Positions 4,441-50,087 of a stretch of DNA of 59,780 bases are shown here, one piece after another (within the stretch, counting starts at the first letter, position 1; every line of letters starts with the position of its first letter). Location of the stretch: assembly GCA_046155815.1 (NCBI GenBank), contig JBJXFY010000021.1:1-59780 (forward strand). Direction: 5' to 3'. A model generated the notes under the pieces. The model searched no databases and had not been told where the DNA came from. It worked only from the letters and a program-made list of their open reading frames with translations. A program made the position numbers and the translations under genes. This DNA comes from Limisphaerales bacterium (GTDB taxonomy: Bacteria; Verrucomicrobiota; Verrucomicrobiia; Limisphaerales; CAIMTB01).

Positions 4441-5232
4441 GTGAACCTCCTCTTTATCGGTGACATCGTGGGCGCGCCCGGCCGGCGGGCGGTCCGCACG
4501 CTGCTGCCGGCCCTGCGTGCCCGCCACGACCTTCACCTTGTCATCGCCAACGGCGAAAACAGCGCGGGTGGCGCCGGCATCACGCCCGACACCGCGTCCG
4601 AGATTTTCGCGGCCGGCGTGGACATCATCACCACGGGGGACCATCTCTGGGACCAGAAGGAAGTGAGTGAACTCCTGCTCCGGGAGACGCGCTTCCTGCG
4701 CCCGTTGAACTACCCCGCCGGCACCCTGGGCCAGGGCAGCACCGTCTGGCAGCGCGACGGCCTGCCCTCCGTGGGCATCCTGAACGCGCAGGGCCGGACC
4801 TTCATGCCGCCGCTGGACAACCCCTTCACCGTGGCGCCGCCCGAGGTCGAACGCGTGCGCCGGCACACGCCGCTGATCTTCGTGGATTTCCACGCCGAGG
4901 CCACGTCCGAGAAGATCGCCTTCGCGCGCATGCTCGACGGGAAGGTCTCCGCCGTCGTGGGCACGCACACGCACGTGCAGACGGCCGACGAGCAGATCTT
5001 CCCCGGCGGCACCGCGTACCTCACCGACGCCGGCTTCACCGGGCCGCACGAGAGCGTGCTGGGGCGCGAGATTGATCCGGTGGTGCGCAAGTTCCAGACC
5101 TGCGCCCCGGCGAAGTTTGGCATCGCCGCCGGCCGCATCCTGCTCCAGGGCGCGCTCATCCGCGTGGACGACCAGACCGGCCGCGCGCTGGCCATCGAGC
5201 GCGTTTCCGAGCCGCTGCCCGCGCACTCCTGA
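4441..5232 (+). CDS. ymdB: YmdB-like metallophosphoesterase (TIGR00282-type 2',3'-cyclic nucleotide phosphodiesterase family)
   Basis: 3' part of ORF 3919..5232. The in-frame GTG at 4441 gives VNLLFIGDIVGAPGRRAV...VIANGENSAGGAGIT...DIITTGDHLWDQKEV...DFHAEATSEK...GTHTHVQTAD. The upstream part of the ORF shadows the opposite-strand DUF3500 gene. Confidence 0.8.
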   Translation: MNLLFIGDIVGAPGRRAVRTLLPALRARHDLHLVIANGENSAGGAGITPDTASEIFAAGVDIITTGDHLWDQKEVSELLLRETRFLRPLNYPAGTLGQGSTVWQRDGLPSVGILNAQGRTFMPPLDNPFTVAPPEVERVRRHTPLIFVDFHAEATSEKIAFARMLDGKVSAVVGTHTHVQTADEQIFPGGTAYLTDAGFTGPHESVLGREIDPVVRKFQTCAPAKFGIAAGRILLQGALIRVDDQTGRALAIERVSEPLPAHS

Positions 5233-8242: not shown

Positions 8243-9019
8243 ATGCTCGCCAAACGCCTCATCCCCTGCCTCGACGTGCATGACGGGCACGTCACGCGCG
8301 GCGCGCAGTTCGGCCGCGCTGAGGCCGGCGGCCTGCGCAACGTGGGCGACCCGGTCGCCCTGGCCATGCGTTACAACGAGCAGGGAGCGGACGAGCTGGT
8401 TTTCTACGACATCACCGCCAGCGCGCACGGCCGCGCGACGATGGTGGACGTGATCGAGCGCACCGCCTCGGAGTGCTTCATGCCGCTCACCGTGGGCGGC
8501 GGCCTCCGCAGCGTGGAGGACATGTACGCCATGCTTCGCGCCGGCGCGGACAAGGTGAGCCTCAACTCCTCCGCGCTGAGGACGCCGGACCTGATCCGCG
8601 CCGGGGCGGAGAAGTTCGGCAGCCAGTGCATCGTGGTCTCGCTGGACGTGAAGCGCGTCGCGCCGGACCGCTGGGAGGTCTTCGCGAAGGGCGGCCGCGA
8701 GGCCACGGGCCGCGAGGCGCTGGCGTGGGCGCGGGAGGCCGTGGCGCTCGGGGCCGGGGAGATCGTGCTGAACAGCATGGACGCGGACGGCATGAAGACC
8801 GGGTACGACCTCGAGATCACGCGGCGCGTGAGCGACGCCGTGCCCGTGCCGGTGGTGGCCAGCGGCGGCGCCGGCGCGCTCGAGCACCTGGCCGACGTGC
8901 TGACGCTTGGCCACGCGGACGCCGCGCTGGCCGCGAGCATCTTCCACTACGGCACGTTCACGATTCCGCAGGCGAAGGAGTTCCTCGCCGCGCGCGGCGT
9001 GGCGGTGCGGCCGGTTTGA
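8243..9019 (+). CDS. hisF: imidazole glycerol phosphate synthase cyclase subunit
   Basis: ORF 8087..9019. ATG at 8243 gives [20 protein letters not shown]...[12 protein letters not shown]...GGGLRS...VVASGGAG, the HisF pattern. The upstream part of the ORF is the REP-like spacer. Confidence 0.9.
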
Positions 9020-9069
9020 AGAATTCGCCGTGGCGGGAGGACGCCCGGCCAGCCATCCTACCCCTTCTG

Positions 9070-9456
9070 ATGAGCTTTCTGGACCCGTTGAAGTTCACCG
9101 CCGACGGCCTCATTCCCGCGATCATCCAGGACCATGCGGACGGGCGGGTGCTAATGATGGCGTGGATGAACCGCGCCTCGCTCGAGCAGACCATCGCGAC
9201 CGGCCTCACGCACTTCTGGAGCCGTTCGCGGCAGAAGTTCTGGATGAAGGGCGAGTCCAGCGGCCATGTGCAGCGGGTGAAGGACATCGCCTTCGACTGC
9301 GACGGCGACACGCTGCTCATCCGCGTGGAGCAGACGGGCGCAGCCTGCCACGAGGGCTACCGCTCGTGCTTCTTCCGCTCGATTCGTGGCGGCAGCGCAG
9401 CGGAGGTGACCGAGCCGAGGCTGCAGGATCCCGACGAGATTTATGGCCGGAAGTGA
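9070..9456 (+). CDS. hisI: phosphoribosyl-AMP cyclohydrolase
   Basis: 3' part of ORF 8473..9456. ATG at 9070 gives [41 protein letters not shown]...[18 protein letters not shown]...[27 protein letters not shown]. Confidence 0.9.
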
Positions 9457-10042
9457 CGCCTTCGGGCCGGACGAGTTCGTCGCGTTCGGGTCGCTGGCGC
9501 ACGCGGGTTTTGCGCTGCTGCTCGGCTTCGCGCGCGGGGCGGACCTGCTGAGCACGTGGATCGCCACGCCGACGCTGGCGCTCGAGGCGAACCCCGTCGC
9601 CCGCCGGCTCGGCTGGCGCGGCGGGGCGGCCTTCAACCTCGCGGGCTGCGTGCTGCTCGGCCTGTGGCCGCTGCTCGCCATCGCCGTGGCCACCACCAGC
9701 CTGCTCGTGGCCGCGCACAACCTCGACTCCGCCTGGCTCATGCGCCTGTACGGCGAGAGCGGCTACCGCCTGTGGCGGGCGGACACGCTCCGCAACGGCC
9801 GGCGCGGCGAGTTCATCTTGCTGCTCGTGACGCGGATGGGCCTCTTCGCGCTGCTCGGGGCGGGCCTCATGCTCTTCAGCGGCCTGCGGCTCGTGCCGTT
9901 CGCGGTCGGGCTGGGCGTGGTGACCTACGCGGTGGCCGTGGTGTTCTACACGCTGCTGGCGCTGCGCCGCTTGCGGCCGGCCCCCGGGATGGACCCGCTC
10001 CCCGGCACCGCCGGCATCCCCCACCGTGAACCGGGAGTTTGA
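9443..10042 (+). CDS. hypothetical polytopic membrane protein
   Basis: ORF 9443..10042. Has 4-5 hydrophobic segments and ordinary amino-acid composition. Overlaps the hisI stop by 14 nt and the next gene's start by 17 nt, an operon-like arrangement. Confidence 0.5.
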
Positions 10043-11603
10043 CCTCGCCATCGTCGGCTCGGGTTTCGGCGGGTCGCTGCTGGCGATGGTGGCGCGGCGC
10101 CTGGGCCGGACGGTCGCGCTGCTGGAGAGGGGGACGCACCCGCGCTTCGTCATCGGCGAATCCTCGACGCCGCTGGCGAACCTGCTCCTGGAGGAACTCG
10201 CCGACGCGTACGGCCTGCCGCGACTCAAGCCGCTCGTGAAATGGGGCGCCTGGCGCGCGGCGTACCCGGACCTGCCCGTCGGGCTGAAGCGCGGGTTCAC
10301 CTTCTTCCATCACCGTCTCGGCGAGGCGTTCACCGACGACACCACGCGCGGCCGGCAACTGCTCGTGGCCGCCAGCCCGCATGACGGGATCGCCGACACG
10401 CACTGGTACCGGCCGGCCTTCGACCACTTCCTGGTGCGCGAGGCGGAGGCGCTGGGCGTGGAGTACCGCGACCGCTGCGAGGTGATGGAAGTGAAGGTTT
10501 CGCCCGCCGGCGCGGCGCTGACCTGCCGGCGGGACGGCCGGGAAGAAATGCTTCAGGCCCGGTTCGTCGCGGATGCCGGCAACAACCCCCGCGGCGTGCT
10601 GGCGCGCTCGCTCGGCCTCGCCGAACGGCCCGCGCCCACGATGCCCGCGACGCAGGCGCTGTACGCCCATTTCCACGGCGTGCGGCGGCTGGACGCGCTG
10701 CCCATCACGCCGGCGATCGCCTCCGCGCCATACCCGGCGGATGACGCGGCGGTGCATCACTGCTTCCCCGGCGGGTGGATCTGGGTGCTGCGCTTCGATC
10801 ATGGCATCACCAGCGCAGGCGTGGCGGCGGAGGACGCGCTGGCCCGCAAGCTGAACCTCGCGGAGGGCGCTCCGGCATGGGCGCGGCTGCTGGCGCGGCT
10901 GCCGACGGTGCGCGCGCAGTTTGCCGGCGCGGAGCCGGTCACGCCGTTCGTCCACGCGCCGCGGCTGACCTTCGGCGTCGGGCCGGCGGCGGGGCCGGGC
11001 TGGGCGCTGCTGCCTTCGGCGGCGGGTTTCGTGGACCCGATGATGTCCACGGGCTTCACGCTGACGCTGCTGGGAATCCACCGGCTGGCGCGGGCGTTCC
11101 AGGAGGCGTGGGGCACGCCCGCGCTGGCCGCCCATCTCGCGACCTACGCCGACGACACGCGCGCGGACTGGGCGGCCGTCGAGCGGCTGCTCGGCGCGCT
11201 GTACGCCAGCCTCGGCGACCCGGCGGCCTTCAACGAGGTGGCCCGGCTTTACTTCGCGGCGGTGATCTACGGCGAGACGGCGCGGCGGCTCGGGCGGCCG
11301 GAAGTCGCGGGCGGCCTGCTGCTGCGTAGCCACCCGGAGTTCGGGCCGGCGCTGAAGGAGCTTGGTCTCCTGGCCTTGCATCGGCAGGAAAGCTCCGGTC
11401 TGGATCGTTCCCGACACGCCGCGGCACTAGGTGCCGGAGTCGCCGCGCTGCTCGCCCGCTGCGATCTGGGCGGGCTGGCCGACCTGGACAGACGGAACTG
11501 GCACCCCGTGCTGGCCGCCGACCTGCTGGACCACCGCGGCCGCATCGGCGCGACGGAGGCGGAATGCCGCGCGTTGCTGGCGCGGGCAGGGTTCGTTGGA
11601 TGA
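10026..11603 (+). CDS. FAD-dependent oxidoreductase (flavin halogenase/monooxygenase-like fold)
   Basis: ORF 10026..11603 with GTG start. N-terminal dinucleotide motif [26 protein letters not shown] resembles the WxWxI motif of flavin-dependent halogenases. Function not assignable. Confidence 0.65.
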   Translation: MNREFDLAIVGSGFGGSLLAMVARRLGRTVALLERGTHPRFVIGESSTPLANLLLEELADAYGLPRLKPLVKWGAWRAAYPDLPVGLKRGFTFFHHRLGEAFTDDTTRGRQLLVAASPHDGIADTHWYRPAFDHFLVREAEALGVEYRDRCEVMEVKVSPAGAALTCRRDGREEMLQARFVADAGNNPRGVLARSLGLAERPAPTMPATQALYAHFHGVRRLDALPITPAIASAPYPADDAAVHHCFPGGWIWVLRFDHGITSAGVAAEDALARKLNLAEGAPAWARLLARLPTVRAQFAGAEPVTPFVHAPRLTFGVGPAAGPGWALLPSAAGFVDPMMSTGFTLTLLGIHRLARAFQEAWGTPALAAHLATYADDTRADWAAVERLLGALYASLGDPAAFNEVARLYFAAVIYGETARRLGRPEVAGGLLLRSHPEFGPALKELGLLALHRQESSGLDRSRHAAALGAGVAALLARCDLGGLADLDRRNWHPVLAADLLDHRGRIGATEAECRALLARAGFVG

Positions 11604-11715
11604 CGCGGCCGGGCGCCGCGGACACCTGCGGCGACGTGGCCTCGCCGCCACGGGCATCCTGCCAGCAAGGTGACGGCGGCACGTTCAGGCCGGCCCGCTT
11701 GCCGCGCGGGGTGCG

Positions 11716-24251: not shown

Positions 24252-26189
24252 ATGCCCTACAGCCGACTTGCCGCCGACGTGAGCCAGCATCCCTTGGTGC
24301 CGCCGGGCGTGCTGGCCGCCCTGCTCGAGCGGCCCGCGCCGGCCGGCCGGCCGCTCAACCCGCACGACACGGAGTCCCTGAACCGGGTGCCGTGGCTGGA
24401 TCTGGTCGCACGCGCGCAGTCCGCCGGCCAGCTCAACGAGGAGCAGGCGCAGCGGCTGGTGGATGCGGACCGGGAGTTCACGATGCAGTTCGAGCGGCTG
24501 CGGCGGGACCTCCCGGAGGTGGCGGAGGTGACGGGCTGCGACGCGCTGTGCGTGGAGCGGCTGGCGCGGTCGCTCTTCGGCCTGCGGCTGCTGGGCGAGT
24601 ACCTCGAGGTGGCGCTGCCGCCGCAGGTCACCTACGAGCGCACGGCGCAGGGCACCGAGGACCTGCTCGAGGCGCTGGGCGCGGCGGTGCGGCGGCTGGT
24701 GGGCGGGGCGTGGTCCGTGCTGTTCCCGACGGGGGAGCTGAGCCTGGTGGCGGACGGCTCGGCGCAGTTCTGGGTGGCGTGCCTGCACAACCGCCGGCCG
24801 GACGAGATGGTGGCGGGCTTCATCGGCTACTTCCGCCGACCGCATGCCGACCGCTTCCGCGAATTGAACGGCTCCTACCAGCCCGACCGCCGGCTGCACG
24901 TGCGGGACGCCATCCGCGAGCACCTGGACACGGCGGGCGACCGGCTGAAGCAGCTCCGCGAGGCGGTGGCGGACGCGGTGAAGGAGGGGCCGGAGAAGAC
25001 CTTCCAGGAAATCTGCCGGCTGGCGGCGCGCCTTGAGCTGCATCCGGCGGCGCTGCAGTTCATCCACCACGCGGTGCGCGATGTGTGCGACGCGCTGGCC
25101 GGGCTGGACGGCCGCCTGAGCGCGCGGGAAAACCGCTTCGTGCAGTACCTGCTGCACCAGACCGGCCGGCAGGTGGAGGAATACGTCGCCCTGACCTCGG
25201 CGCGTCCCGAGCTGGCCGCGGACAACGTCACCGCCATCCTCGCGGAGCTGGACGCGCTGGTGGGCCTCGCGCCGGTCAAGGCCAAGGTGCGCGAGGCGGC
25301 GAACGTCGCGCGGCTCCAGCAGATGCGCGCCAGCCAGGGCCTCCCGCCCATCGCCACGAGCTACCACGCCGTCTTCACCGGCAATCCCGGCACCGGCAAG
25401 ACCACCGTCGCCCGCCTGCTCGGCCGCATCTACCGGGCGCTCGGCGTGCTGAAGAAGGGCCACCTGGTCGAGTGCGACCGCGCCGGCCTCGTGGCCGAGT
25501 ACCTCGGACAGACGGCGCACCGCACCAACGCGGCGGTGGACTCGGCGCTGGACGGCATCCTGTTCATTGACGAGGCCTACACGCTGGCAAAGGACCGCGA
25601 GGACTACGGCCGCGAGGCGATGGACACGCTGCTCAAGCGCATGGAGGATGAACGGGGGCGGCTGATCGTGGTGGTGGCGGGCTATCCGGCGGAGATGGAG
25701 CGCTTCATCAACTCGAACCCCGGCCTGCGCTCCCGCTTCAACCGCTACATCGACTTCCCGGACTACTCGCCGGCCGAGCTGGCGCGCATCTTCGCCTCCA
25801 TGTGCCGCCGGAGCGGGCTGCGGCTCGAGCCGGCGCTGCGCGAGCGGGTGCTGCGCTACTTCCACGTCGAGCACGCGCGGCGCGACCAGCATTTCGGCAA
25901 CGCGCGCCTCGCGCGGAACCTCTTCGAAGCCGTGGTCAGCGCGCAGGCCTCGCGGCTGGTGGACCTGGCCCAGCCCGCGCCGGACGCGCTCACGCTGCTG
26001 CACGCGCCGGACCTCGTGCTGGCCGTGGATGTGGAGAACGCGTTGCCGGACGTGGCATCCGCCGGCTGGGTGGTGAAATGCCCGAAATGCGCCACGCCCT
26101 ACGCCTGGTCCGCGGAACTCACGCTGACCGACGCTCAATGCACGAAGTGCGGCACGAACTACAACTGCGAGTTCGGCGAGCCGGCGTAA
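24252..26189 (+). CDS. AAA+ ATPase of the CbbX/SpoVK/EccA type with a ~340-aa unrecognised N-terminal region and C-terminal zinc-ribbon
   Basis: ORF 24252..26189. Walker A FTGNPGTGKTTVARLLG, Walker B GILFIDEAYTL, and GYPAEMERFINSNPGLRSRFNRYIDFPDY, typical of the CbbX/SpoVK clade. C-terminus VVKCPKCATPY...AQCTKCGTNYNCEF (4 Cys). Starts 25 nt after the tRNA 3' end. Confidence 0.8.
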   Translation: MPYSRLAADVSQHPLVPPGVLAALLERPAPAGRPLNPHDTESLNRVPWLDLVARAQSAGQLNEEQAQRLVDADREFTMQFERLRRDLPEVAEVTGCDALCVERLARSLFGLRLLGEYLEVALPPQVTYERTAQGTEDLLEALGAAVRRLVGGAWSVLFPTGELSLVADGSAQFWVACLHNRRPDEMVAGFIGYFRRPHADRFRELNGSYQPDRRLHVRDAIREHLDTAGDRLKQLREAVADAVKEGPEKTFQEICRLAARLELHPAALQFIHHAVRDVCDALAGLDGRLSARENRFVQYLLHQTGRQVEEYVALTSARPELAADNVTAILAELDALVGLAPVKAKVREAANVARLQQMRASQGLPPIATSYHAVFTGNPGTGKTTVARLLGRIYRALGVLKKGHLVECDRAGLVAEYLGQTAHRTNAAVDSALDGILFIDEAYTLAKDREDYGREAMDTLLKRMEDERGRLIVVVAGYPAEMERFINSNPGLRSRFNRYIDFPDYSPAELARIFASMCRRSGLRLEPALRERVLRYFHVEHARRDQHFGNARLARNLFEAVVSAQASRLVDLAQPAPDALTLLHAPDLVLAVDVENALPDVASAGWVVKCPKCATPYAWSAELTLTDAQCTKCGTNYNCEFGEPA

Positions 26190-29063: not shown

Positions 29064-30413
29064 TCAAGGCGGCGGCTTCAGGCGGCCCACGACCCCTGAC
29101 GCCGATTCAGGCGAGATCGCCAGCCGGTAAAACGCGGGCGCCGCGGGAGGTGGCACATCGCCATGGACTTCCGGGCCGGGCGCGGCGGGAACCCTGCTTG
29201 AGATGAGGGACCAATTCATCAGGTCCGGCGTCCGCTCGACCGCGTAACGCCAGCCCGGCGCGGCGTTCCAGCGCAGGCGCGGGATCGCGGGCCGGCCCTC
29301 GAGGGTGAGCGTGAGTTCCGGCCAACCGGGCTCGGCGCTCCACACCGAAAAATCATGAAACACGCCACGCGCCCGGATGGAACCGCCGAACGGAGGAGCC
29401 TGCCCGGCATCGCTGTAACTCGCGATGGCGAACGCGTCCACGAGGAAGTCCTCGCCCGCCGGGAGCACGACATCGGCAATCTCGCCGGCCGGCGAGGTCC
29501 GCGTGCGCAACGTGCGCGTGGCGGCCGAGTAGCGCAGGGAAACGGAGTAGGTCCGGCCCGGTGTGAGTTCCTCGGGAAACGCGAAGGCCGGGAAGAAACG
29601 GCCCGCCTGCGAGACGATCACGGGGGAGATCGTCGCGCCGAATCCCGTGTCGGGAAACCAGTTCCACTCGACGAGGTTTGGCGAGGCCGTGGCCGTGCCG
29701 CGCAGGAAGCCGGGCGCGTCGGCCTCCGCCCGGCGCTGGAGGCCGAAGGCGATCTGGAACGGTCCCGGCCGGCCGGGATGCACGCCGCCGGACGCCAAAA
29801 TCAGGGTGAAGCTGGCCGTGAGCTGGAAATCATTCGTAGCGGTCAACGGCCGGGGCAGCGGGCGGCGGAAGTAGCTGTTCATGTTGCTCGAGTTCCAGGT
29901 CACTTCCAGATGGCCTGCGGCCGGCTGCCAGATGACAAAGTTGGTCTCGCCGGTGGCTTCCCAGCCCTGGGTGAACGGGTCGGTGCCGAAGGATTCCTCC
30001 CACCCAACGGAAGTCTGGGCGTGAGTCACCGGGACCAGAATGAGGAGGACAAGCGTGATCAGGAGTGTCTTCCAGGGGCAGTGTCGGCAGCCGGACTCGC
30101 AGCACCGGCCGCGGCGGAGCAGATAACGCACGGAGAAGACGAAGCGCCGGTCCGGATCAAGGTAGAAGTCGCGGCCGGCGACGGGCGGCGCGTCCGGGCC
30201 GAGTTCGAGGGCTTCAAGGCAGCGGCGGCAGAGACACCGGCCGCGGGCGTGCTCGGGCAGGTGGCGGAGGCGTTCGGCGGGAAGGGTCAATTCGCCGCAC
30301 CAGCACGGGCCCTTGTGCAGGCTGGTGCTGGCGAGCTGGCAACGGTTGGCTTCGCCGCAGATGGGACACTCGGCGGCACAGGCCCCGGTGCACGGGGCGA
30401 CATCTTGGTTCAT
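29064..30413 (-). CDS. fusion protein: Cys-rich CWC domain + DUF5522-like CCxxGCRHCP domain + TM/signal-like segment + exported domain + C-terminal YxVE...W...FYRL module
   Basis: ORF 29064..30650(-), ATG at 30413 (MNQDVAPCTGACAAECPICGEANRCQLASTSLHKGPCWCGE...CLCRRCLE). Then DFYLDPDRRFVFSVRYLLRRGRCCESGCRHCPW, directly followed in frame by KTLLITLVLLILVPVTHAQT and a ~240-aa domain. Ends LRWNAAPGWRYAVERTPDLMNWS...PAFYRLAISPE. Confidence 0.65.
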   Translation of the reverse strand: MNQDVAPCTGACAAECPICGEANRCQLASTSLHKGPCWCGELTLPAERLRHLPEHARGRCLCRRCLEALELGPDAPPVAGRDFYLDPDRRFVFSVRYLLRRGRCCESGCRHCPWKTLLITLVLLILVPVTHAQTSVGWEESFGTDPFTQGWEATGETNFVIWQPAAGHLEVTWNSSNMNSYFRRPLPRPLTATNDFQLTASFTLILASGGVHPGRPGPFQIAFGLQRRAEADAPGFLRGTATASPNLVEWNWFPDTGFGATISPVIVSQAGRFFPAFAFPEELTPGRTYSVSLRYSAATRTLRTRTSPAGEIADVVLPAGEDFLVDAFAIASYSDAGQAPPFGGSIRARGVFHDFSVWSAEPGWPELTLTLEGRPAIPRLRWNAAPGWRYAVERTPDLMNWSLISSRVPAAPGPEVHGDVPPPAAPAFYRLAISPESASGVVGRLKPPP

Positions 30414-30877
30414 GGACTCGCAACGGTCCGGGCGCACGCCGGCGTGGCGCTGCGAGACCAGGGAATCCGCACGGCCTGCGCCCGCGGTTGCCCGGCCGTG
30501 CGCGGCCCGGGCTGGCCTCATCCCGCCCTGCAACGGGGCGGCCCCGGCCCATCCGGGCCGGGCTGACGAGTCCTGCGCCGCCGGCATCCTGACTGCGGGC
30601 CTCCGCCCCCGCTTCCGCCTTCCCGGCCGCACGGACAGTGACTCGTGCAAGTTTGCAGCCCGTCACAGCGGCGTCACCGCCCCCGGTTCTCGCGGGGTTC
30701 CCCGACACGGCACAGGTTCCCGCCGGCAGCAGCGGCCGGCGGGGTCAAAGAACGGGCCGAGTGTGAGTCAGGCTGTGGTCTGGCCAAGCAGAAACCACGC
30801 GCCGCCCCGGCCATCGTCCCGCGGGACGGCCGCCCCGACCCGTTGCATTCGCGGCATCCGCAGATACGGTGCCGTCC

Positions 30878-32560
30878 ATGGCTGAGCCGAAGAAGAAATC
30901 CGGCCCGCCGGGAACGCCGGCCGACCCGGTGCCTCCGCTAGGCGACCTGCTATCGACCGAGGAAATGGAGCGCCTCTCCACGCTCCAACTGCTTGACCTC
31001 GTCGCCTCCAAGCTTCCGCCGCGCAGCAGCGGACTGCTCGACCTCGTCTATCTCCGGGAACGCGTGCAGGGCCTCGAGGAGATGAATGACCAGGCCCGTG
31101 CCGCGCTCGAGAAGTACGGCGAGATCGTTGAGAAGCTACGTTCGCCCGCCTTCCGCATCGGCACCTACCTCGCGCCCCTCGAGCCGGACCGCGCGCACGT
31201 CTGCGTCGGCGGCACGGACTACGTGTGCCGAGTGGACCCGGCCGTGCCGCTCTCCGGCCTCCAGCTCGGCCAGCGCGTGCTTTGCAACGAGGCCTTCGCC
31301 GTCGTGCAGGGGCTGGGCTTCGACCGGCAGGGGCCGATTGTCCGGGTGGACGAGATGCTGAGCGACGGCCGGCTGCGCATCGGCAACGAGGGCGGCGTCA
31401 CGCCGCTCGTGGTCCTGCGCTCCGCCCTGCTCTCGAAGGAGAAGCTCAAGCCCGGCATGGAAATCCGCCTTGATGTGAACCAGCGCGTCGCGCTCGAGGT
31501 GATCGGCGTCGGCAAGCGCGTCGAGCGCTCGCTCGAGAAGGTCCACGAGCTGCCCTGGTCCGCCATCGGCGGGCAGGAGGAGGCCGTGCAGGCCATCCGC
31601 GACACCATCGAGCTGCCGTTCCTGCACCGCGACCTGTTCAGAAAGTTCCAGCACACGGTGCCGAAGGGCTTCCTGCTCTACGGCCCGCCCGGCTGCGGCA
31701 AGACGCTGCTCGGCAAGGCGACGGCCTACAACCTGCGCCGCCAGATCCGCGAGGCGACGGGCGTGGATCATCCGGAATTCTTCCTCCATGTGAAGGGCCC
31801 CGAGATCCTCAACATGTGGGTCGGCGAGTCCGAGCGGCAGGTGCGCGACCTCTTCGCCCAGTGCCGCGAGCGCGCGCACGACGGCGCGCTGGCCTTCCTC
31901 TTCATGGACGAGGCGGAGGCGCTGCTCGGCACGCGGCGCGGCGGGCGGGTGCATTCCATGAGCAACACGCTCGTGCCGATGTTCTGCACGGAGATGGACG
32001 GCCTCGAACCGCTGCAGAACGTGGTGGTGATCCTCGCCTCGAACCGCGCGGACCTGATTGACCCCGCGATCCTCCGGCCCGGCCGCGTGGACCGGAAGAT
32101 CAAGGTCGTGCGGCCCACGAAGGCGGCGGCGCAACGCATCTACGAGATCTACCTGCCGGCGGACCTGCCGCTGGCCGAGCCGCGCGAGCAGCTCGCCGCC
32201 GCGGTGACGGAGGCGCATTTCGCGCGCGCGCCGGAGAACGAGTTCCTTGAGGCCGTGTACCGCAGCGGCCGGCGCGACCTGCTGTACCGCGGCGACCTGG
32301 CGAGCGGAGCGGTCATCGCGGCGATCGTCGAGCGGGCGAAGGACTTTGCCATCCACCGCGCCATCGCCGGCAGCGGTGAGACCGCCCTCACGCGCGACGA
32401 CCTGCTCGCCGCGCTGGCCAAGGAGTACGTCGAGAACGAACTCTTCCCGCCCACGGACAGCACCGAGGACTGGCTGAAGCTGACGGACTTCGACCCCGAG
32501 AACGTCGTGCGCCTCGGCCCGGTGAAGCCGCGGAAGGCGGGCGCGGGGGCGGCGGTTTGA
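30878..32560 (+). CDS. mpa: Mpa/ARC-type proteasome-associated AAA ATPase homolog
   Basis: ORF 30869..32560 (ATG at 30878). N-terminal coiled coil and an OB-like region. AAA module LPFLHRDLFRKFQHTVPKGFLLYGPPGCGKTLL...FLFMDEAEALLGTRR...ILASNRADLIDPAILRPGRVDRKIKV. Mpa-specific tail FLEAVYRSGRRDLLYRGDLASGAVIAAIVERAKDFAI...NELFPPTDSTEDWLKL, collinear with M. tuberculosis Mpa as recalled. Ends ...RKAGAGAAV, with no GQYL-type tail. Confidence 0.85.
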   Translation: MAEPKKKSGPPGTPADPVPPLGDLLSTEEMERLSTLQLLDLVASKLPPRSSGLLDLVYLRERVQGLEEMNDQARAALEKYGEIVEKLRSPAFRIGTYLAPLEPDRAHVCVGGTDYVCRVDPAVPLSGLQLGQRVLCNEAFAVVQGLGFDRQGPIVRVDEMLSDGRLRIGNEGGVTPLVVLRSALLSKEKLKPGMEIRLDVNQRVALEVIGVGKRVERSLEKVHELPWSAIGGQEEAVQAIRDTIELPFLHRDLFRKFQHTVPKGFLLYGPPGCGKTLLGKATAYNLRRQIREATGVDHPEFFLHVKGPEILNMWVGESERQVRDLFAQCRERAHDGALAFLFMDEAEALLGTRRGGRVHSMSNTLVPMFCTEMDGLEPLQNVVVILASNRADLIDPAILRPGRVDRKIKVVRPTKAAAQRIYEIYLPADLPLAEPREQLAAAVTEAHFARAPENEFLEAVYRSGRRDLLYRGDLASGAVIAAIVERAKDFAIHRAIAGSGETALTRDDLLAALAKEYVENELFPPTDSTEDWLKLTDFDPENVVRLGPVKPRKAGAGAAV

Positions 32561-32601
32561 CCGGCGGTTGCCGGTGTCCTCAGCCAACCCATGCTTGTGT
32601 C

Positions 32602-32862
32602 ATGACCGCAACCATCGAGCTTCCGGATGAGTGCCGCGATCTTGTCGAGGCGCACCGGGGACGCCTGGGGGAGCTGCTGCTGCTCGGCATCGGGCAGGCA
32701 CGGATTCGTGAGGCGCGGCGGCGGTACGAGGAGGGCGAAATCTCCATCGGCCGCGCCGCGGAATTGGCGGGATTGACGCGCGCAGAGGTCATCCGCGAAG
32801 CGCTGGCCCGTGGAATCGAACCTGCGGTCTCGGAGGAGATGCTGGACGAAGTCACGCGATGA
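32602..32862 (+). CDS. UPF0175-family antitoxin-like HTH protein
   Basis: ORF 32557..32862. ATG at 32602 gives MTATIELPDECRDLVEAHRG...RRRYEEGEISIGRAAELAGLTRAEVIREALARGIEP. 4-nt ATGA overlap with the next gene. Confidence 0.7.
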   Translation: MTATIELPDECRDLVEAHRGRLGELLLLGIGQARIREARRRYEEGEISIGRAAELAGLTRAEVIREALARGIEPAVSEEMLDEVTR

Positions 32863-33338
32863 CCGCGGTCACCAACTCCGGCCCGTTGATGGCGCTGGCC
32901 AAGGTCGGTTCCTTGGAGCTGTTCAGACGCGCGTTTCACGAGGTGATCGTGCCGATGGAGGTTTTTGACGAGGTAGCGGTGGCCGGCGCGGACTCCACGG
33001 ATGGTGCCTTGATCAAGGAGGCCGTTCGCAACGGCTGGTTCCGGCTGCATCCCGCGCCGGCTCCGGCTGCCGAGGCGTGGGCGGGCCTCGACGCCGGCGG
33101 AACCGCGGCCATCCGGCTCGCACAGACTCTGCGAGCAGATGCGGTGCTGCTGGATGACATGGCCGCCCGGCGGGAGGCGCTCGCCCTAGGACTGCGCGTG
33201 ATGGGTACGCTGGGAATTCTGCTGCACGCGGTGGAGCTTGGAACGTGTCCGGAAGCGCAGGCGTTGGAAAGCCTCGACCGGATGCAGGCTAGGAAGGACA
33301 TCTGGCTGCGGCGCGAGCTGATGGAGGCGGCCTGTTGA
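32859..33338 (+). CDS. DUF3368-type PIN-like domain protein (toxin-like partner of UPF0175)
   Basis: ORF 32859..33338: MTAVTNSGPLMALAKVGSLELFRRAFHEVIVPMEVFDEV...LDAGGTAAIRLA...VLLDDMAARREALALGLRVMGTLGILLHAV. Matches the DUF3368 pattern, but positions where I expect acidic residues read N (VTNSG) and G (LDAGG). Confidence 0.65.
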   Translation: MTAVTNSGPLMALAKVGSLELFRRAFHEVIVPMEVFDEVAVAGADSTDGALIKEAVRNGWFRLHPAPAPAAEAWAGLDAGGTAAIRLAQTLRADAVLLDDMAARREALALGLRVMGTLGILLHAVELGTCPEAQALESLDRMQARKDIWLRRELMEAAC

Positions 33339-33363
33339 AACACGGAGTACCCCGGCGTCCAAC

Positions 33364-34899
33364 GTGACATCCCCCTCCCCCATCCTCTTCGGCCTCGAGA
33401 CCGAGCTGGGCATTGCGCGGGATGGCGCGCCCGAGCTGGACGTGGTGGCCGAGTCCATCGCGCTCGTCCGCAGCGTGACCGAGCCGGGCGTGCTGATGCG
33501 CTGGGACTACTCCGCCGAGAATCCGCACCGCGACGTGCGCGGCTTCGAGGTGGACGAGCTGCGCCAGGACTTCGATGAGGCGGGCTACCTGGCGCAGGAC
33601 GCCGCACGCGAGCTGAGCTGGGCCGAGATCAAGAGCGACTTCGTGCTCGGCAATGGCGCGCGTTTCTACAACGACCACGCCCACCCCGAGTACTGCACGC
33701 CCGAGTGCGCCTCCGTCGCGGACCTCGTCGCCCATGACCGCGCGGGCGAGCGCATCGCCACCGCCTGCGCGCGGCGCCTTTCGGAGGTGCGCGGCGCCGC
33801 CGTCCGCCTGTACAAGAACAACACGGACTTCCGCGGCCACAGCTACGGCTGCCACGAGAACTACCTCATCCCCCGCGCCGTTCCGTGGGAGGCGCTCGCC
33901 GCCGCCATCCAGGCCTTCCTCGTCACGCGCCAGATCTTCGCCGGCGCGGGCAAGTTCGCCGTCGAGGACGAGGACCGCTTCGTCGGCCCCGGCTTCCAGC
34001 TCGCGCAACGCAGCGACTTCTTCACCGAGCTGCAGAGCGTGGACACCATGCAGCGCCGGCCGCTCATCAACACGCGCGACGAGCCGCACGCCGACCCCGC
34101 CCTTTGGCGTCGCTTCCACGTCATCCTCGGCGACGCGAACATGTCGCCCTTCGCGACGTGGCTGAAGGCCGGCACGACGGCCCTGGTGCTCAGGGCCATC
34201 ATTCAGGCGGGACGGGCTTCCAGTCCGTCCTCCAGCCTCCGCTGGCCTGTGCTCGCCGATCCGCTTGCCGCCCTGCGCGCCATCTCGCGAGATCCGGCCT
34301 GGAAATGGGAGGTGAAGCTGGCCGGCCGCCGCACCGCCAGCGCCCTCGACATCCAGCGCGCCTACCTCGACGCGGTGAAGGCCCTCGGCGAACCCGCGAC
34401 GCCGGAGCACACGCAATTGATCGCCGCGTGGGAGGAAGTCCTGAACGACCTCGGCGCCGACCCGCGCCGCTGCGCCGACCGCCTCGACTGGGTGGCCAAG
34501 CACGAGCTGGTCCGCTCGTTTCAGAACGCCGAGGGCCTGGCCGACGATGATCCGTGGCTGCGCAGCCTCGACCTTGAGTATCACCGGCTGGATCCGGCGG
34601 AGGGCCTGTTCTTCGGACTCGAGCAGGCCGGGCAGTTGCGGCGTGTGGTGGACGACGCCCAGGTCGCCCGCGCCATCTACGACCCGCCGGCCGACACCCG
34701 TGCCCGCATCCGCGGACGGTGCGTGGACAAGTTCGAGTCAGCCGTCCACTCCGCGCAGTGGGACCACATCACTTTGAAGACTGCGGCCGGCCCGCTCAGG
34801 ATTGACCTGACGCAGCTCTTCTCCCCGGCCGAGCTCGCCCGCGTGGCCGCCGCCGTGGAGGCGGCGAGCACGCCGGACGACCTGCACTCGCTGCTGTGA
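33364..34899 (+). CDS. dop: PafA/Dop-superfamily enzyme, Dop (deamidase/depupylase)-like
   Basis: ORF 33364..34899 (GTG start). Contains LFGLETELGI, GARFYNDHAHPEYCTPEC, LYKNNTDFRGHSYGCHENYL, FLVTRQIFAGAGK, INTRDEPHADP, HVILGDANMS. Dop-like features: insert RWDYSAENPHRDVRGFEV, plus FQLAQRSDF, RAISRDPAW, LDWVAKHEL, PPADTRARIRG. Confidence 0.85.
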   Translation: MTSPSPILFGLETELGIARDGAPELDVVAESIALVRSVTEPGVLMRWDYSAENPHRDVRGFEVDELRQDFDEAGYLAQDAARELSWAEIKSDFVLGNGARFYNDHAHPEYCTPECASVADLVAHDRAGERIATACARRLSEVRGAAVRLYKNNTDFRGHSYGCHENYLIPRAVPWEALAAAIQAFLVTRQIFAGAGKFAVEDEDRFVGPGFQLAQRSDFFTELQSVDTMQRRPLINTRDEPHADPALWRRFHVILGDANMSPFATWLKAGTTALVLRAIIQAGRASSPSSSLRWPVLADPLAALRAISRDPAWKWEVKLAGRRTASALDIQRAYLDAVKALGEPATPEHTQLIAAWEEVLNDLGADPRRCADRLDWVAKHELVRSFQNAEGLADDDPWLRSLDLEYHRLDPAEGLFFGLEQAGQLRRVVDDAQVARAIYDPPADTRARIRGRCVDKFESAVHSAQWDHITLKTAAGPLRIDLTQLFSPAELARVAAAVEAASTPDDLHSLL

Positions 34900-34931
34900 C
34901 GGCCGCCGGGCCGGGAACCGGGGGACTGCCC

Positions 34932-37900
34932 CTAGGGTTCGCGCCGGGGCGGCTCGTCCGGCGGAGCGTTGGTCACCAGATTCCCAAGGGCATCGCCACT
35001 GCCGTCCTCCGCCGGGCCGCGGAAACCGCTGGCGATCCACCCGAGCGCCTGGAAAGGCCAGAAAAGGAACTTGGGCACGTACACGGGTTGTGGCTCCGGG
35101 TCGGCCAACGTGCCCGTGACCTTGAACTCGAACAGTTTCGTGATCGGCGCGGTGAGCACGCTGAAGAGCGGGCCAAGCAGCGAGACGTTGCGGAAGACAC
35201 GCGCCTCGACGCGCGTGTCCACCCGTCGCTCCAAGTCCACCGTGCCGCGGTAATCAAGCCGCACGAGCGCGCTGTTCATCAGCAGGTTGGTCGTGCGGAT
35301 GACGCCGTCGGTGATGGTGAAATCGGCGGTCGCACGGTCGAAGCGCTGGCTGCCGAGGCCGGGCATCAGGGTGTTCAGCGCCGGGCTCATGAAGCCGAAG
35401 ACCGGCACGTCCCAGATCAGGCCGTTCGTCAGCGAGGCGCGGCCGTGGCCGTTCCACGTCATCACGTCGGAGGTCAGGCCGGAGGTGACGTGCAGGTCCA
35501 GCTCGAGCTCGCCCTCGAGCCGGCTGTTGGTGGTGGCGGCATCGCGCATGAGCGGGCCGAGCCGCGCGCCCCGCACCAGTGCGGCGAAGCGGTACGGCGT
35601 GTCCGCCGCGCGCCCGCCCACCTCGAACTCCGCCCAGCCGTCCAGCACGCCTTCGTAGAAGCTTGCATTCAGGTTCGTCAGGGCCAGCCGCCCGCCGGCC
35701 CAACGCAGGTCCGCGTTGATGTTCCGGGCGTGCAGCCGCCAGAAGGTGAAGTCCTCGCCCGCAACGCCGAAGCGCAGGTCGCCGTCGTCCAGGTTCCGCC
35801 GCGCAAACGTGCCGTCCGCCACGATGCGCGGCGGCCGGCCGAAGCGGTAGTGGCGGATCTTCTCCGGGAACTCCGGGCTGATCAGCCCTGCGACCAGCGA
35901 CGGCTCCAGCGCGCTGACGACGTTCGTGAGCCACACGCGGTCCTCATCAAAATGATAGGCTGCCGTCCCGGCCGTGAGCGCCGCGCCGTCGCGGCGCGCG
36001 GCGACGTTCGTGAGCACCATCAGGCGGTTCGTGTACACCGCGCCGACGCTGAGGGCGTCGAAGCGCTCGCCGCGGAAGGCGAGGTTGGTGGCGGCTATCG
36101 TGCCGGCGATGCCCATGCGGTTCCCCTCCGTCCACGGGCCAAAGACGACCACGTCCGCCTCCACGCCTTCGGGAAAGGAGAAGAGGTCCAGCACGGTGCT
36201 GCTCGCCTCGCCGAGCACGGGCTTGAGCACCGGCGGCAGCACCCGGCCGCGCCCGGCGATGCGGTACTGGCCGGACGGCTTGTCGTAGTCAATGTCCACG
36301 GCCTGCGCGCCCTCGGGCCGGGTGCTTTCAAGGTCCGGCAGCCGCCAGCGGCCGGCGTCAAAGTCCAGGCTGGATCGGACCGAATCCACGGGCATGCCCT
36401 TGAACGAGGCCGGTCCCGTACGCACCCGGCCGGAGAACCGGAGGTTCGGCTCGAAGTCCCGCTGCCAGCGCACGGCCCGGTTGGTCCATGCGGGGAACCG
36501 CAGCGAGGCCGAGCCCGTGAATTCCGGCGGGTCGCGCCACTGAAAGCGGCCGAAGTTCGCCCGCCCCGCCGGCCCCAGAAGCGGGTCCAGGCCGTGCAGG
36601 TCGAAGGAGATGGCGACCGCGGCCTCAGCCACGCGCGACTCCACGTCCAGCGTGCCGCGGAGATCCAGCCGCCCGCGGTACAATTCCCCGGTGAGGCGCG
36701 AAACCTCCAGGCGCCTGCCGTCCCAAGCCGTCGCCAGCTCCAGCCGCCGCGCGGTGAAGGCCGGAGAAGCCGCGTCCTCCAGCGCGAGCGAGACCCGGCC
36801 CGCGAACGGCCGCAGGATGTTCCAGAAAGCCAGCTCAGGCGCGGATGCCCCCGGCCCCGCCGCCGGCCGCCACGCGGCATCCAGCTCCACCCGGGCGACC
36901 GAACCGGTCGCCGTCCGCAGGCCCCTCAGTTCCCCGCGCAAGGCGGCCTCCGCAGGCACGAGGTTGGTGCCCAGCCGGCCCAGCCGGCCTTCCAGGCGCA
37001 GCCCCGCGGCGCGCACGGGTTCCCCCAGCCACTCGCCCGCCTCGACCGCGCCCGCGGTGAGCGTGAAGTCCGTCGGCACGTCGCGGCGGCGCAGCAGCTC
37101 GAGGGGCGGCAGTGCGGCGGCCAGGTGATTGGTGGCCCGCAGCGTGAGGCTGCGCGCGCGCAGGCCGCGGGCATGCAGGTGCCCCGCGGTGACCTGCCAG
37201 GCGGCGTTGGTCGGCACCTCGAGCGCGGATCCGGCCAGGAGGCCGCCCTCGATGCGCAGCGCCTCGACACCGCCGTCCCCGGAGCGCGCCTCGGCCACGT
37301 CGAGCATGAGGCGCGCCTGGCGGACGCCTTCCACCGGCCCACCGGGGGGGAACCGCAGCGCGAGCCGGAGCCCCCGCACGTAGCCGCGCGGCGTGTCGGC
37401 CTCGGGCACCGCGAAGAGCAGTTCCGCGGCCGCGTCCTCGGGCCGTGCGGCGTCGCCCCGCACGAAGACGGTCAGGTACGGCGTGCCGGTCACGCGCCAC
37501 GAGTCGAAGGCCTCGAGGGCGTCCCGGAGCTCTGCCAGCATGCGGGCCCGGCGCGCCGCGTCGGGCGGCGCGCCGGCGCGCCGGCGGGTGAGCTGCACCG
37601 CGTTGGTGATGACGCCCGAGAACTCAAGTCGAACCCCCAGCACCTCGGCGGCGCAGCGGTCCACCTGCACCACGTCGCCAGGGTGGAAGGCGACCTCCGC
37701 GACGACGTGGCGGAACACCAGTGCGCGGGCTGCGGCGCGCCCGGCCGCGGGCAGCGGCTGCACCAGCTCGCCGTCCCGGATCTCCAGCGCGCGGAGCAGG
37801 CCGAGGTCGCCGCGCCACGGCGGCGGGCGGAGCCGGAGGCGGGCCTCGGGGATGCGCAGGACCGGGGCGTTGGTCCCCGCACCCAGCACCACCCGCAGGC

Positions 37901-38150
37901 CGCGCGCGAGCAGGCCGTCGCGGAGGCTGAACCGGAGAGAGGCGACGCCGGCCTCGAGGCCCTGCGCCCGCAGCTCGGCAAACACGCGCGCCTTCACCAC
38001 CTCCGGCACGCCGAGGAACTGGACCCAGCACAGCGCCGCCGCCGCCGCGAACACGCCCAGCAGCACGGCGATGCGACAGCCGCGGAGGACGCGCCGCCAG
38101 CGCGGCCGGGGAGGGCGGGGCTCCGTCTTCGTGGCCGCGGCTTCGTTCAC
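34932..38150 (-). CDS. AsmA-like/TamB-like large envelope protein (N-terminal TM anchor, AsmA_2-type C-terminus)
   Basis: ORF 34932..38150(-), GTG start. N-terminal anchor RIAVLLGVFAAAAALCWVQFL followed by a long repetitive beta-rich body. C-terminus GLIWDVPVFGFMSPALNTLMPGLGSQRFDRATADFTITDGVIRTTNLLMNSALVRLDYRGTVDL...FEFKVTGTLADP resembles AsmA-family ends. Confidence 0.65.
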   Translation of the reverse strand: MNEAAATKTEPRPPRPRWRRVLRGCRIAVLLGVFAAAAALCWVQFLGVPEVVKARVFAELRAQGLEAGVASLRFSLRDGLLARGLRVVLGAGTNAPVLRIPEARLRLRPPPWRGDLGLLRALEIRDGELVQPLPAAGRAAARALVFRHVVAEVAFHPGDVVQVDRCAAEVLGVRLEFSGVITNAVQLTRRRAGAPPDAARRARMLAELRDALEAFDSWRVTGTPYLTVFVRGDAARPEDAAAELLFAVPEADTPRGYVRGLRLALRFPPGGPVEGVRQARLMLDVAEARSGDGGVEALRIEGGLLAGSALEVPTNAAWQVTAGHLHARGLRARSLTLRATNHLAAALPPLELLRRRDVPTDFTLTAGAVEAGEWLGEPVRAAGLRLEGRLGRLGTNLVPAEAALRGELRGLRTATGSVARVELDAAWRPAAGPGASAPELAFWNILRPFAGRVSLALEDAASPAFTARRLELATAWDGRRLEVSRLTGELYRGRLDLRGTLDVESRVAEAAVAISFDLHGLDPLLGPAGRANFGRFQWRDPPEFTGSASLRFPAWTNRAVRWQRDFEPNLRFSGRVRTGPASFKGMPVDSVRSSLDFDAGRWRLPDLESTRPEGAQAVDIDYDKPSGQYRIAGRGRVLPPVLKPVLGEASSTVLDLFSFPEGVEADVVVFGPWTEGNRMGIAGTIAATNLAFRGERFDALSVGAVYTNRLMVLTNVAARRDGAALTAGTAAYHFDEDRVWLTNVVSALEPSLVAGLISPEFPEKIRHYRFGRPPRIVADGTFARRNLDDGDLRFGVAGEDFTFWRLHARNINADLRWAGGRLALTNLNASFYEGVLDGWAEFEVGGRAADTPYRFAALVRGARLGPLMRDAATTNSRLEGELELDLHVTSGLTSDVMTWNGHGRASLTNGLIWDVPVFGFMSPALNTLMPGLGSQRFDRATADFTITDGVIRTTNLLMNSALVRLDYRGTVDLERRVDTRVEARVFRNVSLLGPLFSVLTAPITKLFEFKVTGTLADPEPQPVYVPKFLFWPFQALGWIASGFRGPAEDGSGDALGNLVTNAPPDEPPRREP

Positions 38151-49607: not shown

Positions 49608-50087
49608 TCACACGGCCGGCGGGGCCGCAATTTCCCGCCGGACCTCGGCCCAATGCTCCTCCGCAACCATGTAGCCGAGGCAGTTCTTCGCCCCGCAGGC
49701 GCAGGGGTAGTCGCGCCAGGACTCCAGTTCGTAGCCGTAGTTGAAGGTCAGCTCCTCGCCCGGCTCGATCGGCCGGAGCGCCACGATCCAGATGCGGTCG
49801 CCGTCCTGCTGCGCCTCGCAGTTGGGGTCGCAGGAATGGTTGAGGAAGCGCGCCGGGTTCCCCGGCACGTCGCCATCGAGGTCCCATTCCTCGTTCACGG
49901 TGAAGATGTACGGGTTCTCGGCGAGACAGCGGCGTTCGGATTCCGCCTTCGAGACGCGCTCGCCGAGGTACTCGATGACCTCCGTACCGGCCGGGATGGC
50001 GCGCCGCGCGTAGGCGCCGTGGCCGTGGATGCCCGACGGGCCGAGGGCGACCCATTCGTTCACCGGTTCGCGTGCGGGGTCGTTCAT
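49608..50087 (-). CDS. SET domain protein (putative protein-lysine methyltransferase)
   Basis: ORF 49608..50087(-). Contains [25 protein letters not shown]...[12 protein letters not shown]...[10 protein letters not shown] and the post-SET motif [11 protein letters not shown]. Confidence 0.85.

Follow-up and report, generated by a model that had tools for sequence, protein, structure and literature searches.

A stand-alone mpa-dop gene pair in a Limisphaerales bacterium, probably one half of a split UBact-proteasome locus

Gram-negative bacteria have a counterpart of actinobacterial pupylation, the UBact-proteasome system, which was described, and UBact named, in 2017 (Lehmann et al., BBRC 483:946, as cited in PMC12751074); Pup-like genes had been noted earlier in verrucomicrobia (Iyer et al., 2008, PMC2588565). 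Models of the tag protein UBact exist in both NCBIfam (NF033388) and Pfam (PF20513). The locus analyzed here is an ordinary piece of this already described system, in a split arrangement that has been little remarked. It lies in a Verrucomicrobiota chromosome segment of 59.8 kb with a guanine-plus-cytosine content of 70% (contig JBJXFY010000021.1 of a Limisphaerales bacterium), hereafter the window, and contains the gene of an Mpa/ARC-type proteasomal ATPase (mpa) and that of a Dop-type enzyme (dop). This pair is likely to be the mpa-dop half of a dispersed UBact-proteasome gene set, the other half of which, namely UBact, the 20S beta and alpha genes (prcB and prcA) and a PafA-type paralog of dop (pafA2), would be found elsewhere in the genome.

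Compared with complete UBact-proteasome loci, the ATPase and the Dop-type enzyme of the window are orthologous to their counterparts (97 and 94% amino acid identity, respectively, to those of the closest relative), with the same domain content and conserved positions, but of the system only mpa and dop are present in 59.8 kb, with no UBact, 20S or ligase-type gene next to them. The ancestral gene order is shared with the actinobacterial Pup-proteasome system, as is full-length similarity to Mpa (312 bits) and Dop (351.6 bits) with conservation of the Dop loop, although the window proteins score below the equivalog cutoffs. Besides, the tag ends in RTG[QE] in UBact and in GG[QE] in actinobacterial Pup, and Mpa ends in small/hydrophobic residues (G[IV][IV]; AAV in the window) instead of the actinobacterial penultimate-Tyr motif. 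In Corynebacterium, pupylation operates without a proteasome, and pup and pafA are kept. As in the window, an ARC/Mpa ATPase and Dop occur there without nearby 20S genes; in contrast to Corynebacterium, the window shows no tag gene, and relatives with the same layout have 20S genes elsewhere.

The locus is made of four open reading frames (ORFs) in one orientation, encoding the ATPase, a UPF0175 antitoxin, a DUF3368 toxin and an enzyme of the Pup_ligase family. Together with its borders, it reads as follows:

29064..30650, minus strand: DUF5522/Cys-rich CWC gene, upstream (Pfam; 83% nucleotide identity to L169 positions 24-1400)
30869..32560, plus strand: Mpa/ARC-type proteasomal AAA+ ATPase (start GTG 30869 or ATG 30878; Pfam, TIGR03689, PDB)
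32602..32862, plus strand: UPF0175-family antitoxin of a type II toxin-antitoxin pair (PF03683, 33.5 bits, cutoff 27.9)
32859..33338, plus strand: DUF3368 (PIN-like) toxin partner (PF11848, 31.9 bits, cutoff 27.3)
33364..34899, plus strand: Dop-type (predicted deamidase/tag-removing) member of the Pup_ligase family, 511 residues (PF03136, 500.4 bits)
34900..34931, no strand: rearrangement junction, where similarity to L169 stops at the dop stop codon (blastn and end comparison)
34932..38150, minus strand: convergent AsmA-family gene, boundary, outside the system (PF05170 AsmA, 46.7 bits)

In the ATPase, the AAA+ module (PF00004, 107.7 bits) is preceded by tandem proteasomal OB domains (Prot_ATP_ID_OB_N, PF17758, 69.2 bits; Prot_ATP_ID_OB_C, PF16450, 32.2 bits). 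The NCBIfam model TIGR03689 (pup_AAA) matched residues 62-548 with 412.6 bits, which is below the equivalog cutoff of 504.75 of this model tuned to actinobacteria. The top PDB matches were Mpa/ARC of M. tuberculosis (7px9, 7ljf), aligned over residues 10-554 with 312 bits, in agreement with the collinearity of 30878..32560 with mycobacterial Mpa reported in an earlier note on this DNA. The N-terminal region aligns well with that of relatives, and the protein ends in ...LGPVKPRKAGAGAAV. The same note had read the tail correctly (...RKAGAGAAV), but its view of this tail as an oddity does not stand, as such an end is normal for verrucomicrobial Mpa proteins encoded beside 20S genes. Indeed, all verrucomicrobial tails examined, 20S-adjacent ones included, follow ...RPRK(x5-9)G[IV][IV] or a near variant, and the closest relative ends in ...KPRKAGAGMAV where the window has ...KPRKAGAGAAV. 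The penultimate-Tyr (GQYL-type) docking motif occurs in no verrucomicrobial Mpa examined, whether from the window or from 20S-adjacent orthologs. Because 20S-linked verrucomicrobial Mpa proteins have the same type of tail, the tail is uninformative on independence from the proteasome. The absence of the penultimate Tyr being the rule in the phylum, docking on the 20S core may differ from that in Mycobacterium. The tail was also considered as a marker separating UBact-linked from unlinked loci, and was rejected since the tails of the two groups do not differ. In another genome (L031, 6436-6942), an insertion behind mpa seems to have copied the 3' end of that gene, since the ORF it introduced terminates in ...DVIRLGPVHPRKNDGGSGVI, nearly identical to the Mpa C-terminal tail.

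The product of 33364..34899 is of the Dop type and is predicted to be a deamidase/tag-removing enzyme. The Pup_ligase model (PF03136) covered residues 8-469, i.e., the full-length fold. The enzyme scored higher with the Dop model TIGR03688 (446.2 bits) than with the PafA model TIGR03686 (344.5 bits); the first score is under the equivalog cutoff of 492.3, as is that of the Dop of a canonical verrucomicrobial locus (L012, 436.3 bits). Among PDB entries, Dop (4b0r) was matched over the full length with 351.6 bits, and PafA (4b0t) only from residue 90 onward with 220.5 bits. The Dop-specific N-terminal loop is present, since the insert RWDYSAENPHRDVRGFEV aligns with RWDFEEENPLRDARGFEV of Acidothermus Dop, so that the assignment to the PafA/Dop family with a Dop-type insert made in the earlier note holds. 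Identity to the PafA-type paralog of relatives is 35%, and in a phylogeny of Dop proteins the window enzyme is placed beside UBact-linked clades.

A scan with one genome per species gave 80 verrucomicrobial loci in which Dop is 59-71% identical to that of the window. UBact directly follows dop in 62 of these 80 Dop-anchored loci, as a gene of 56-57 codons located ~10-110 nucleotides downstream, with the consensus MPDQ...KVDPDQA[KR]RYRQRTG[QE] in the relatives; mpa is mostly directly upstream of dop, with a short spacer in most loci. Hence, the tag gene that had been expected between mpa and dop is to be looked for after dop in this phylum, at the very point where the window stops resembling its relatives. 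In L012, the genes past dop are UBact (NF033388, 86.7 bits), those of the 20S beta and 20S alpha subunits, and a further Pup_ligase gene, whose product shares 35% identity with the Dop type and is matched over its full length by the PafA model. From this synteny, the ancestral gene order is mpa-dop-UBact-prcB-prcA-pafA2, with the same logic as in actinobacteria. The C-terminal residue of UBact is Gln in 81 of the 98 collected sequences, which would therefore need deamidation. UBact of the clade nearest to the window mostly ends in Glu, and the enzyme may therefore act there mainly in tag removal.

Some records of this collection call for comment. In one metagenome-assembled genome (MAG; L004, ~11520-11690), the UBact ORF ends in ...KVDPAAARIT and not in ...KVDPDQAKRYRQRTGQ; the conjugation end was lost either through a real disruption or through an assembly error. 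Loci L026, L027, L038 and L066 and some UBact records are verrucomicrobial by sequence and labelled otherwise (Methylomirabilota, Klebsiella, Haliangiales, Omnitrophota, Saccharimonadales, Baltobacteraceae), which probably reflects binning or labelling errors.

Protein search gave a single close relative of the window (P0318, Dop 94% identical), all other matches being at most 72% identical. Its 30-kb contig (L169) carries, in order, a DUF5522-like gene, a pilin-like gene, mpa, parD, parE, dop, UBact, prcB, prcA, an mrr gene and pafA2, and its UBact scores 111 bits with the hidden Markov model (HMM) described below and ends in ...RYRQRTGE. The two Mpa genes share 97% amino acid and 94% nucleotide identity, and the two Dop genes 94 and 92%, respectively, which establishes the orthology of both window genes to those of a complete locus. 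The DNA similarity between the two contigs ends at the dop stop codon, as seen by blastn and by end comparison. Since L169 holds the full cluster and similarity stops at that codon, the layout of the window is a recent derived state, produced by a rearrangement or else by a large deletion that broke the DNA immediately past dop. The 10 kb that follow the L169 cluster have no match in the window and contain no counterpart of the AsmA gene, and the event therefore removed or displaced at least 10 kb. The DUF5522 gene is the only flanking gene syntenic with L169. When the AsmA, DUF4340, pilin-like and DUF5522 proteins of the window were used as synteny probes, no shared synteny was detected in the 160 first loci. 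Across the junction, base composition shows no discontinuity, and a search for a mobile element found no transposase or integrase among the genes of the window. In L169, a gene for an Mrr-type restriction endonuclease (Mrr_N, Mrr_cat; 8650-9564) lies between prcA and pafA2; the UBact-proteasome locus seems prone to insertions.

The window was searched over 30.8 kb upstream and 24.9 kb downstream of the locus. No UBact or Pup gene was found by a six-frame regular-expression search over the whole window or by tblastn, and with an HMM made from 59 UBact sequences of verrucomicrobia the best score in the window was 7.7 bits (E=0.26), against 121.8 bits for the positive control. With verrucomicrobial tblastn queries, neither 20S gene (prcA, prcB) nor another Pup_ligase gene besides dop was detected in the window, the pafA2 query matching dop as a paralog only. 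The statements of the earlier note that this stretch holds neither a Pup/UBact gene nor proteasome alpha or beta genes are thus borne out over 59.8 kb. Hence, neither UBact (NF033388/PF20513) beside dop nor the 20S alpha/beta genes with the PafA-type paralog, as seen in complete loci, are present, and the other half of the gene set, if present, lies beyond the window because of the span searched. That the sole family member is of the Dop type is true in the window, as had been remarked; it is no longer odd, because the PafA-type paralog is the last gene of the canonical cluster and moves together with UBact and prcBA whenever a split occurs.

Such a split arrangement is common in this phylum. 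UBact is missing after dop in 14 of the 76 informative Dop-anchored genome loci. These 14 stand-alone mpa-dop (or dop) loci belong to at least five separate clades, several of which have diversified, and all their genes are intact; the mpa-dop adjacency is kept in every split lineage. The reverse view was obtained from metagenomes, in which the PafA-type paralog served as anchor and gave 35 informative loci with up to 8 kb of flank: 22 were canonical, and 13 consisted of UBact-prcB-prcA-pafA2 without dop or mpa upstream. This second half standing alone is as common as the lone mpa-dop pair. A common UBact variant (P0256) is encoded in a stand-alone UBact-prcB-prcA-pafA2 set in all ten places where it occurs, in at least four neighbourhoods. 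Both halves are seen in one contig of 6,027,559 bp (ERZ25039534:contig_1519), where mpa-dop lies at ~2.022-2.025 Mb and UBact-prcB-prcA-pafA2 at ~2.051-2.054 Mb, ~26 kb apart on the same strand. There, the mpa-dop pair (L162) is followed by an aminotransferase and MgtE genes, with no UBact by HMM, and the other half (L164) has neither dop nor mpa. Similarly, in the MAG SPRUCE 28, dop without UBact is located on JBEKIA010000188 (L060) and UBact-prcB-prcA-pafA2 on JBEKIA010000022 (L176). The verrucomicrobial system is thus modular, [mpa-dop] and [UBact-prcB-prcA-pafA2] being often apart, and a UBact gene missing beside dop is therefore not to be read as missing from the genome.

Further fragmented states occur, namely pafA2 alone, mpa moved after pafA2, and dop-UBact-prcB without adjacent prcA or pafA2. 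Lone PafA-type paralogs, ~70% identical to canonical ones, are found in L081, L082 and L085 (pafA2 at 10001 or 2319), with no UBact, 20S, dop or mpa gene within up to 10 kb. In L002, L004, L007, L010, L015 and L027, mpa-(insert)-dop-UBact-prcB is present, and neither prcA nor pafA2 could be recognised over up to 9 kb of downstream sequence; by its gene order, this clade represents a third way of cluster splitting, with a beta gene without an adjacent alpha gene. On a 2.63-Mb contig carrying a stand-alone UBact half (L161), no Dop could be paired with it. In this assembly, prcB is split by a frameshift (8464-9235), probably a long-read indel error, and the UBact gene was missed by the gene finder; given such frameshifts, its Dop may be fragmented. 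This case shows that automated gene calls can miss parts of the system. In one lineage (L173, L175; 179-2115), the stand-alone UBact-prcB-prcA-pafA2 set is located ~2 kb downstream of clpP-clpX.

The mpa and dop genes of the window are not decaying. Among the columns kept at ≥97% in orthologs next to UBact, none of 169 is changed in the window Dop and one of 230 (S351A) in the window Mpa, both within the range of UBact-linked sequences. Relative to L169, the ratio of nonsynonymous to synonymous substitution rates (dN/dS) was 0.07-0.08 for mpa and 0.15 for dop, at a dS of 0.20-0.25. For dop, UBact-linked pairs of similar divergence gave 0.08-0.11 and other stand-alone pairs 0.05-0.18; as the window value falls inside the stand-alone range, any relaxation is slight. 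Derived Dop substitutions, polarised with outgroups, amounted to six in the window and six in L169.

On this basis, the cluster mpa-dop-UBact-prcB-prcA-pafA2 would have been present in the ancestor and broken directly after dop by a recent rearrangement in this lineage, the UBact-prcB-prcA-pafA2 module then residing in another part of the genome, at a distance of over 25-30 kb. Judging from the homologous Pup system, the PafA-type paralog would attach UBact through its C-terminal Glu to lysines of substrates, the Dop-type enzyme of the window would deamidate Gln-ending UBact and/or strip UBact from substrates, and the Mpa hexamer would bind tagged proteins, unfold them and feed the 20S PrcAB core. 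The earlier note had left two possibilities, a split or remnant tagging locus, or a proteasome-independent system with an unrecognised modifier. The first is backed by the full cluster of L169, by the end of similarity at the dop stop codon and by the two halves found in one genome; the second found no support, as the two window proteins are unremarkable orthologs, constrained to the same degree as those encoded next to UBact and 20S genes. Some observations nevertheless weigh against a split with both halves retained. For this organism, the other half has not been seen, the view being that of a 59.8-kb window, and one of the two same-genome links, that of SPRUCE 28, depends on MAG binning. 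The dN/dS of dop is slightly over that of UBact-linked pairs, though within the stand-alone range. In addition, the break is recent (dS ~0.2 to L169), and a very recent deletion would leave no decay yet.

One rival explanation is that the lineage recently lost UBact, prcB, prcA and pafA2, leaving mpa-dop as an undecayed leftover or en route to a new role. The recent break and the mildly raised dop dN/dS are what a remnant could show; nothing downstream of the L169 cluster persists in the window, at least 10 kb having been removed or displaced, and fragmented states such as pafA2 alone or dop-UBact-prcB without adjacent prcA/pafA2 are known. However, apart from the single Mpa column, the window genes show no change at conserved sites, and neither frameshifts nor asymmetric acceleration; old clades hold intact stand-alone mpa-dop, and the other half is present wherever the rest of the genome is visible. 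A remnant is therefore considered unlikely. An outcome that appears distinctly improbable is a true loss of UBact, the 20S genes and the ligase, with selection maintaining Mpa and the Dop-type enzyme as an unfoldase-amidase pair independent of tag and proteasome; if true, this pair might be tied to the toxin-antitoxin cassettes of the spacer, e.g., in antitoxin turnover.

We give still less credit to an autonomous module in which Mpa and the Dop-type enzyme would act on an unrecognised modifier or substrate, independently of UBact and 20S and possibly in link with the toxin-antitoxin genes. The adjacency of mpa and dop in every split lineage, the recurrence of toxin-antitoxin cassettes between them and the proteasome-less pupylation of Corynebacterium would fit such a module. 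Yet all positions conserved in UBact-linked Dop are retained, the Mpa tail is that of 20S-linked orthologs, regular-expression and HMM searches gave no candidate modifier ORF in the window, and genomes with stand-alone mpa-dop encode UBact and 20S elsewhere. Finally, a chimeric contig misjoined right after dop, the true genome being canonical, would account for the abrupt end of similarity at the stop codon, but it is hardly credible given the continuous composition across the junction, the clean 3' end of the AsmA gene 32 nucleotides away and the same type of break in many independent assemblies, long-read contigs included. A split locus with its second module elsewhere in the genome is thus the preferred interpretation.

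The toxin-antitoxin pair that the earlier note placed between mpa and dop consists of adjacent small ORFs with hits above threshold. As in type II pairs, the small antitoxin ORF overlaps the toxin ORF (by 4 nucleotides), the pair being located here inside the mpa-dop operon spacer: the antitoxin ORF begins 41 nucleotides past the mpa stop, and the toxin stop is 25 nucleotides ahead of dop. Across the collected loci, inserts in this otherwise mostly short spacer occur in about ten lineages, and in at least five of them the insert is a toxin-antitoxin module of a differing family:

window 32561-33363, plus strand: UPF0175/DUF3368 spacer cassette
L169-L171 (in L169 at 4466-5100) and L054 9335-9989: ParDE spacer cassette
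L068 about 1800-2378 and L072 4060-4503: PIN/VapC spacer cassette
L015 8100-9629: Phd-type and ParD-like spacer cassette

The remaining inserts encode small membrane proteins, a DnaJ-domain protein and a beta-propeller/lactonase-like protein. No DNA similarity was detected by blastn between the spacers of the window and L169. Because the window and L169, whose Dop proteins are 94% identical, hold unrelated cassettes at the same site, the cassette has been swapped, and the pair may be regarded as a mobile cassette in a permissive operon spacer. Such interchangeable and recurrent cassettes are a minor curiosity of the mpa-dop spacer.

The locus is flanked by housekeeping genes, among them those of BamA, Skp, DnaB, AsmA, a DUF4340 gene with an ABC-2 transporter, Fpg and a GyrB/ParE-type topoisomerase. 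The convergent gene noted earlier as ending 32 nucleotides after dop is the AsmA-family gene, with its 3' end at 34932. At 4.7 kb upstream of mpa, a gene at 24252-26189 (plus strand) encodes a protein of 645 residues with a C-terminal AAA and AAA_lid_6 module (CbxX/SpoVK-like), preceded by ~370 N-terminal residues without family match. Besides, a 159-residue SET-domain protein (PF00856, 91.4 bits) is encoded at 49608-50087 (minus strand) in this bacterial chromosome.

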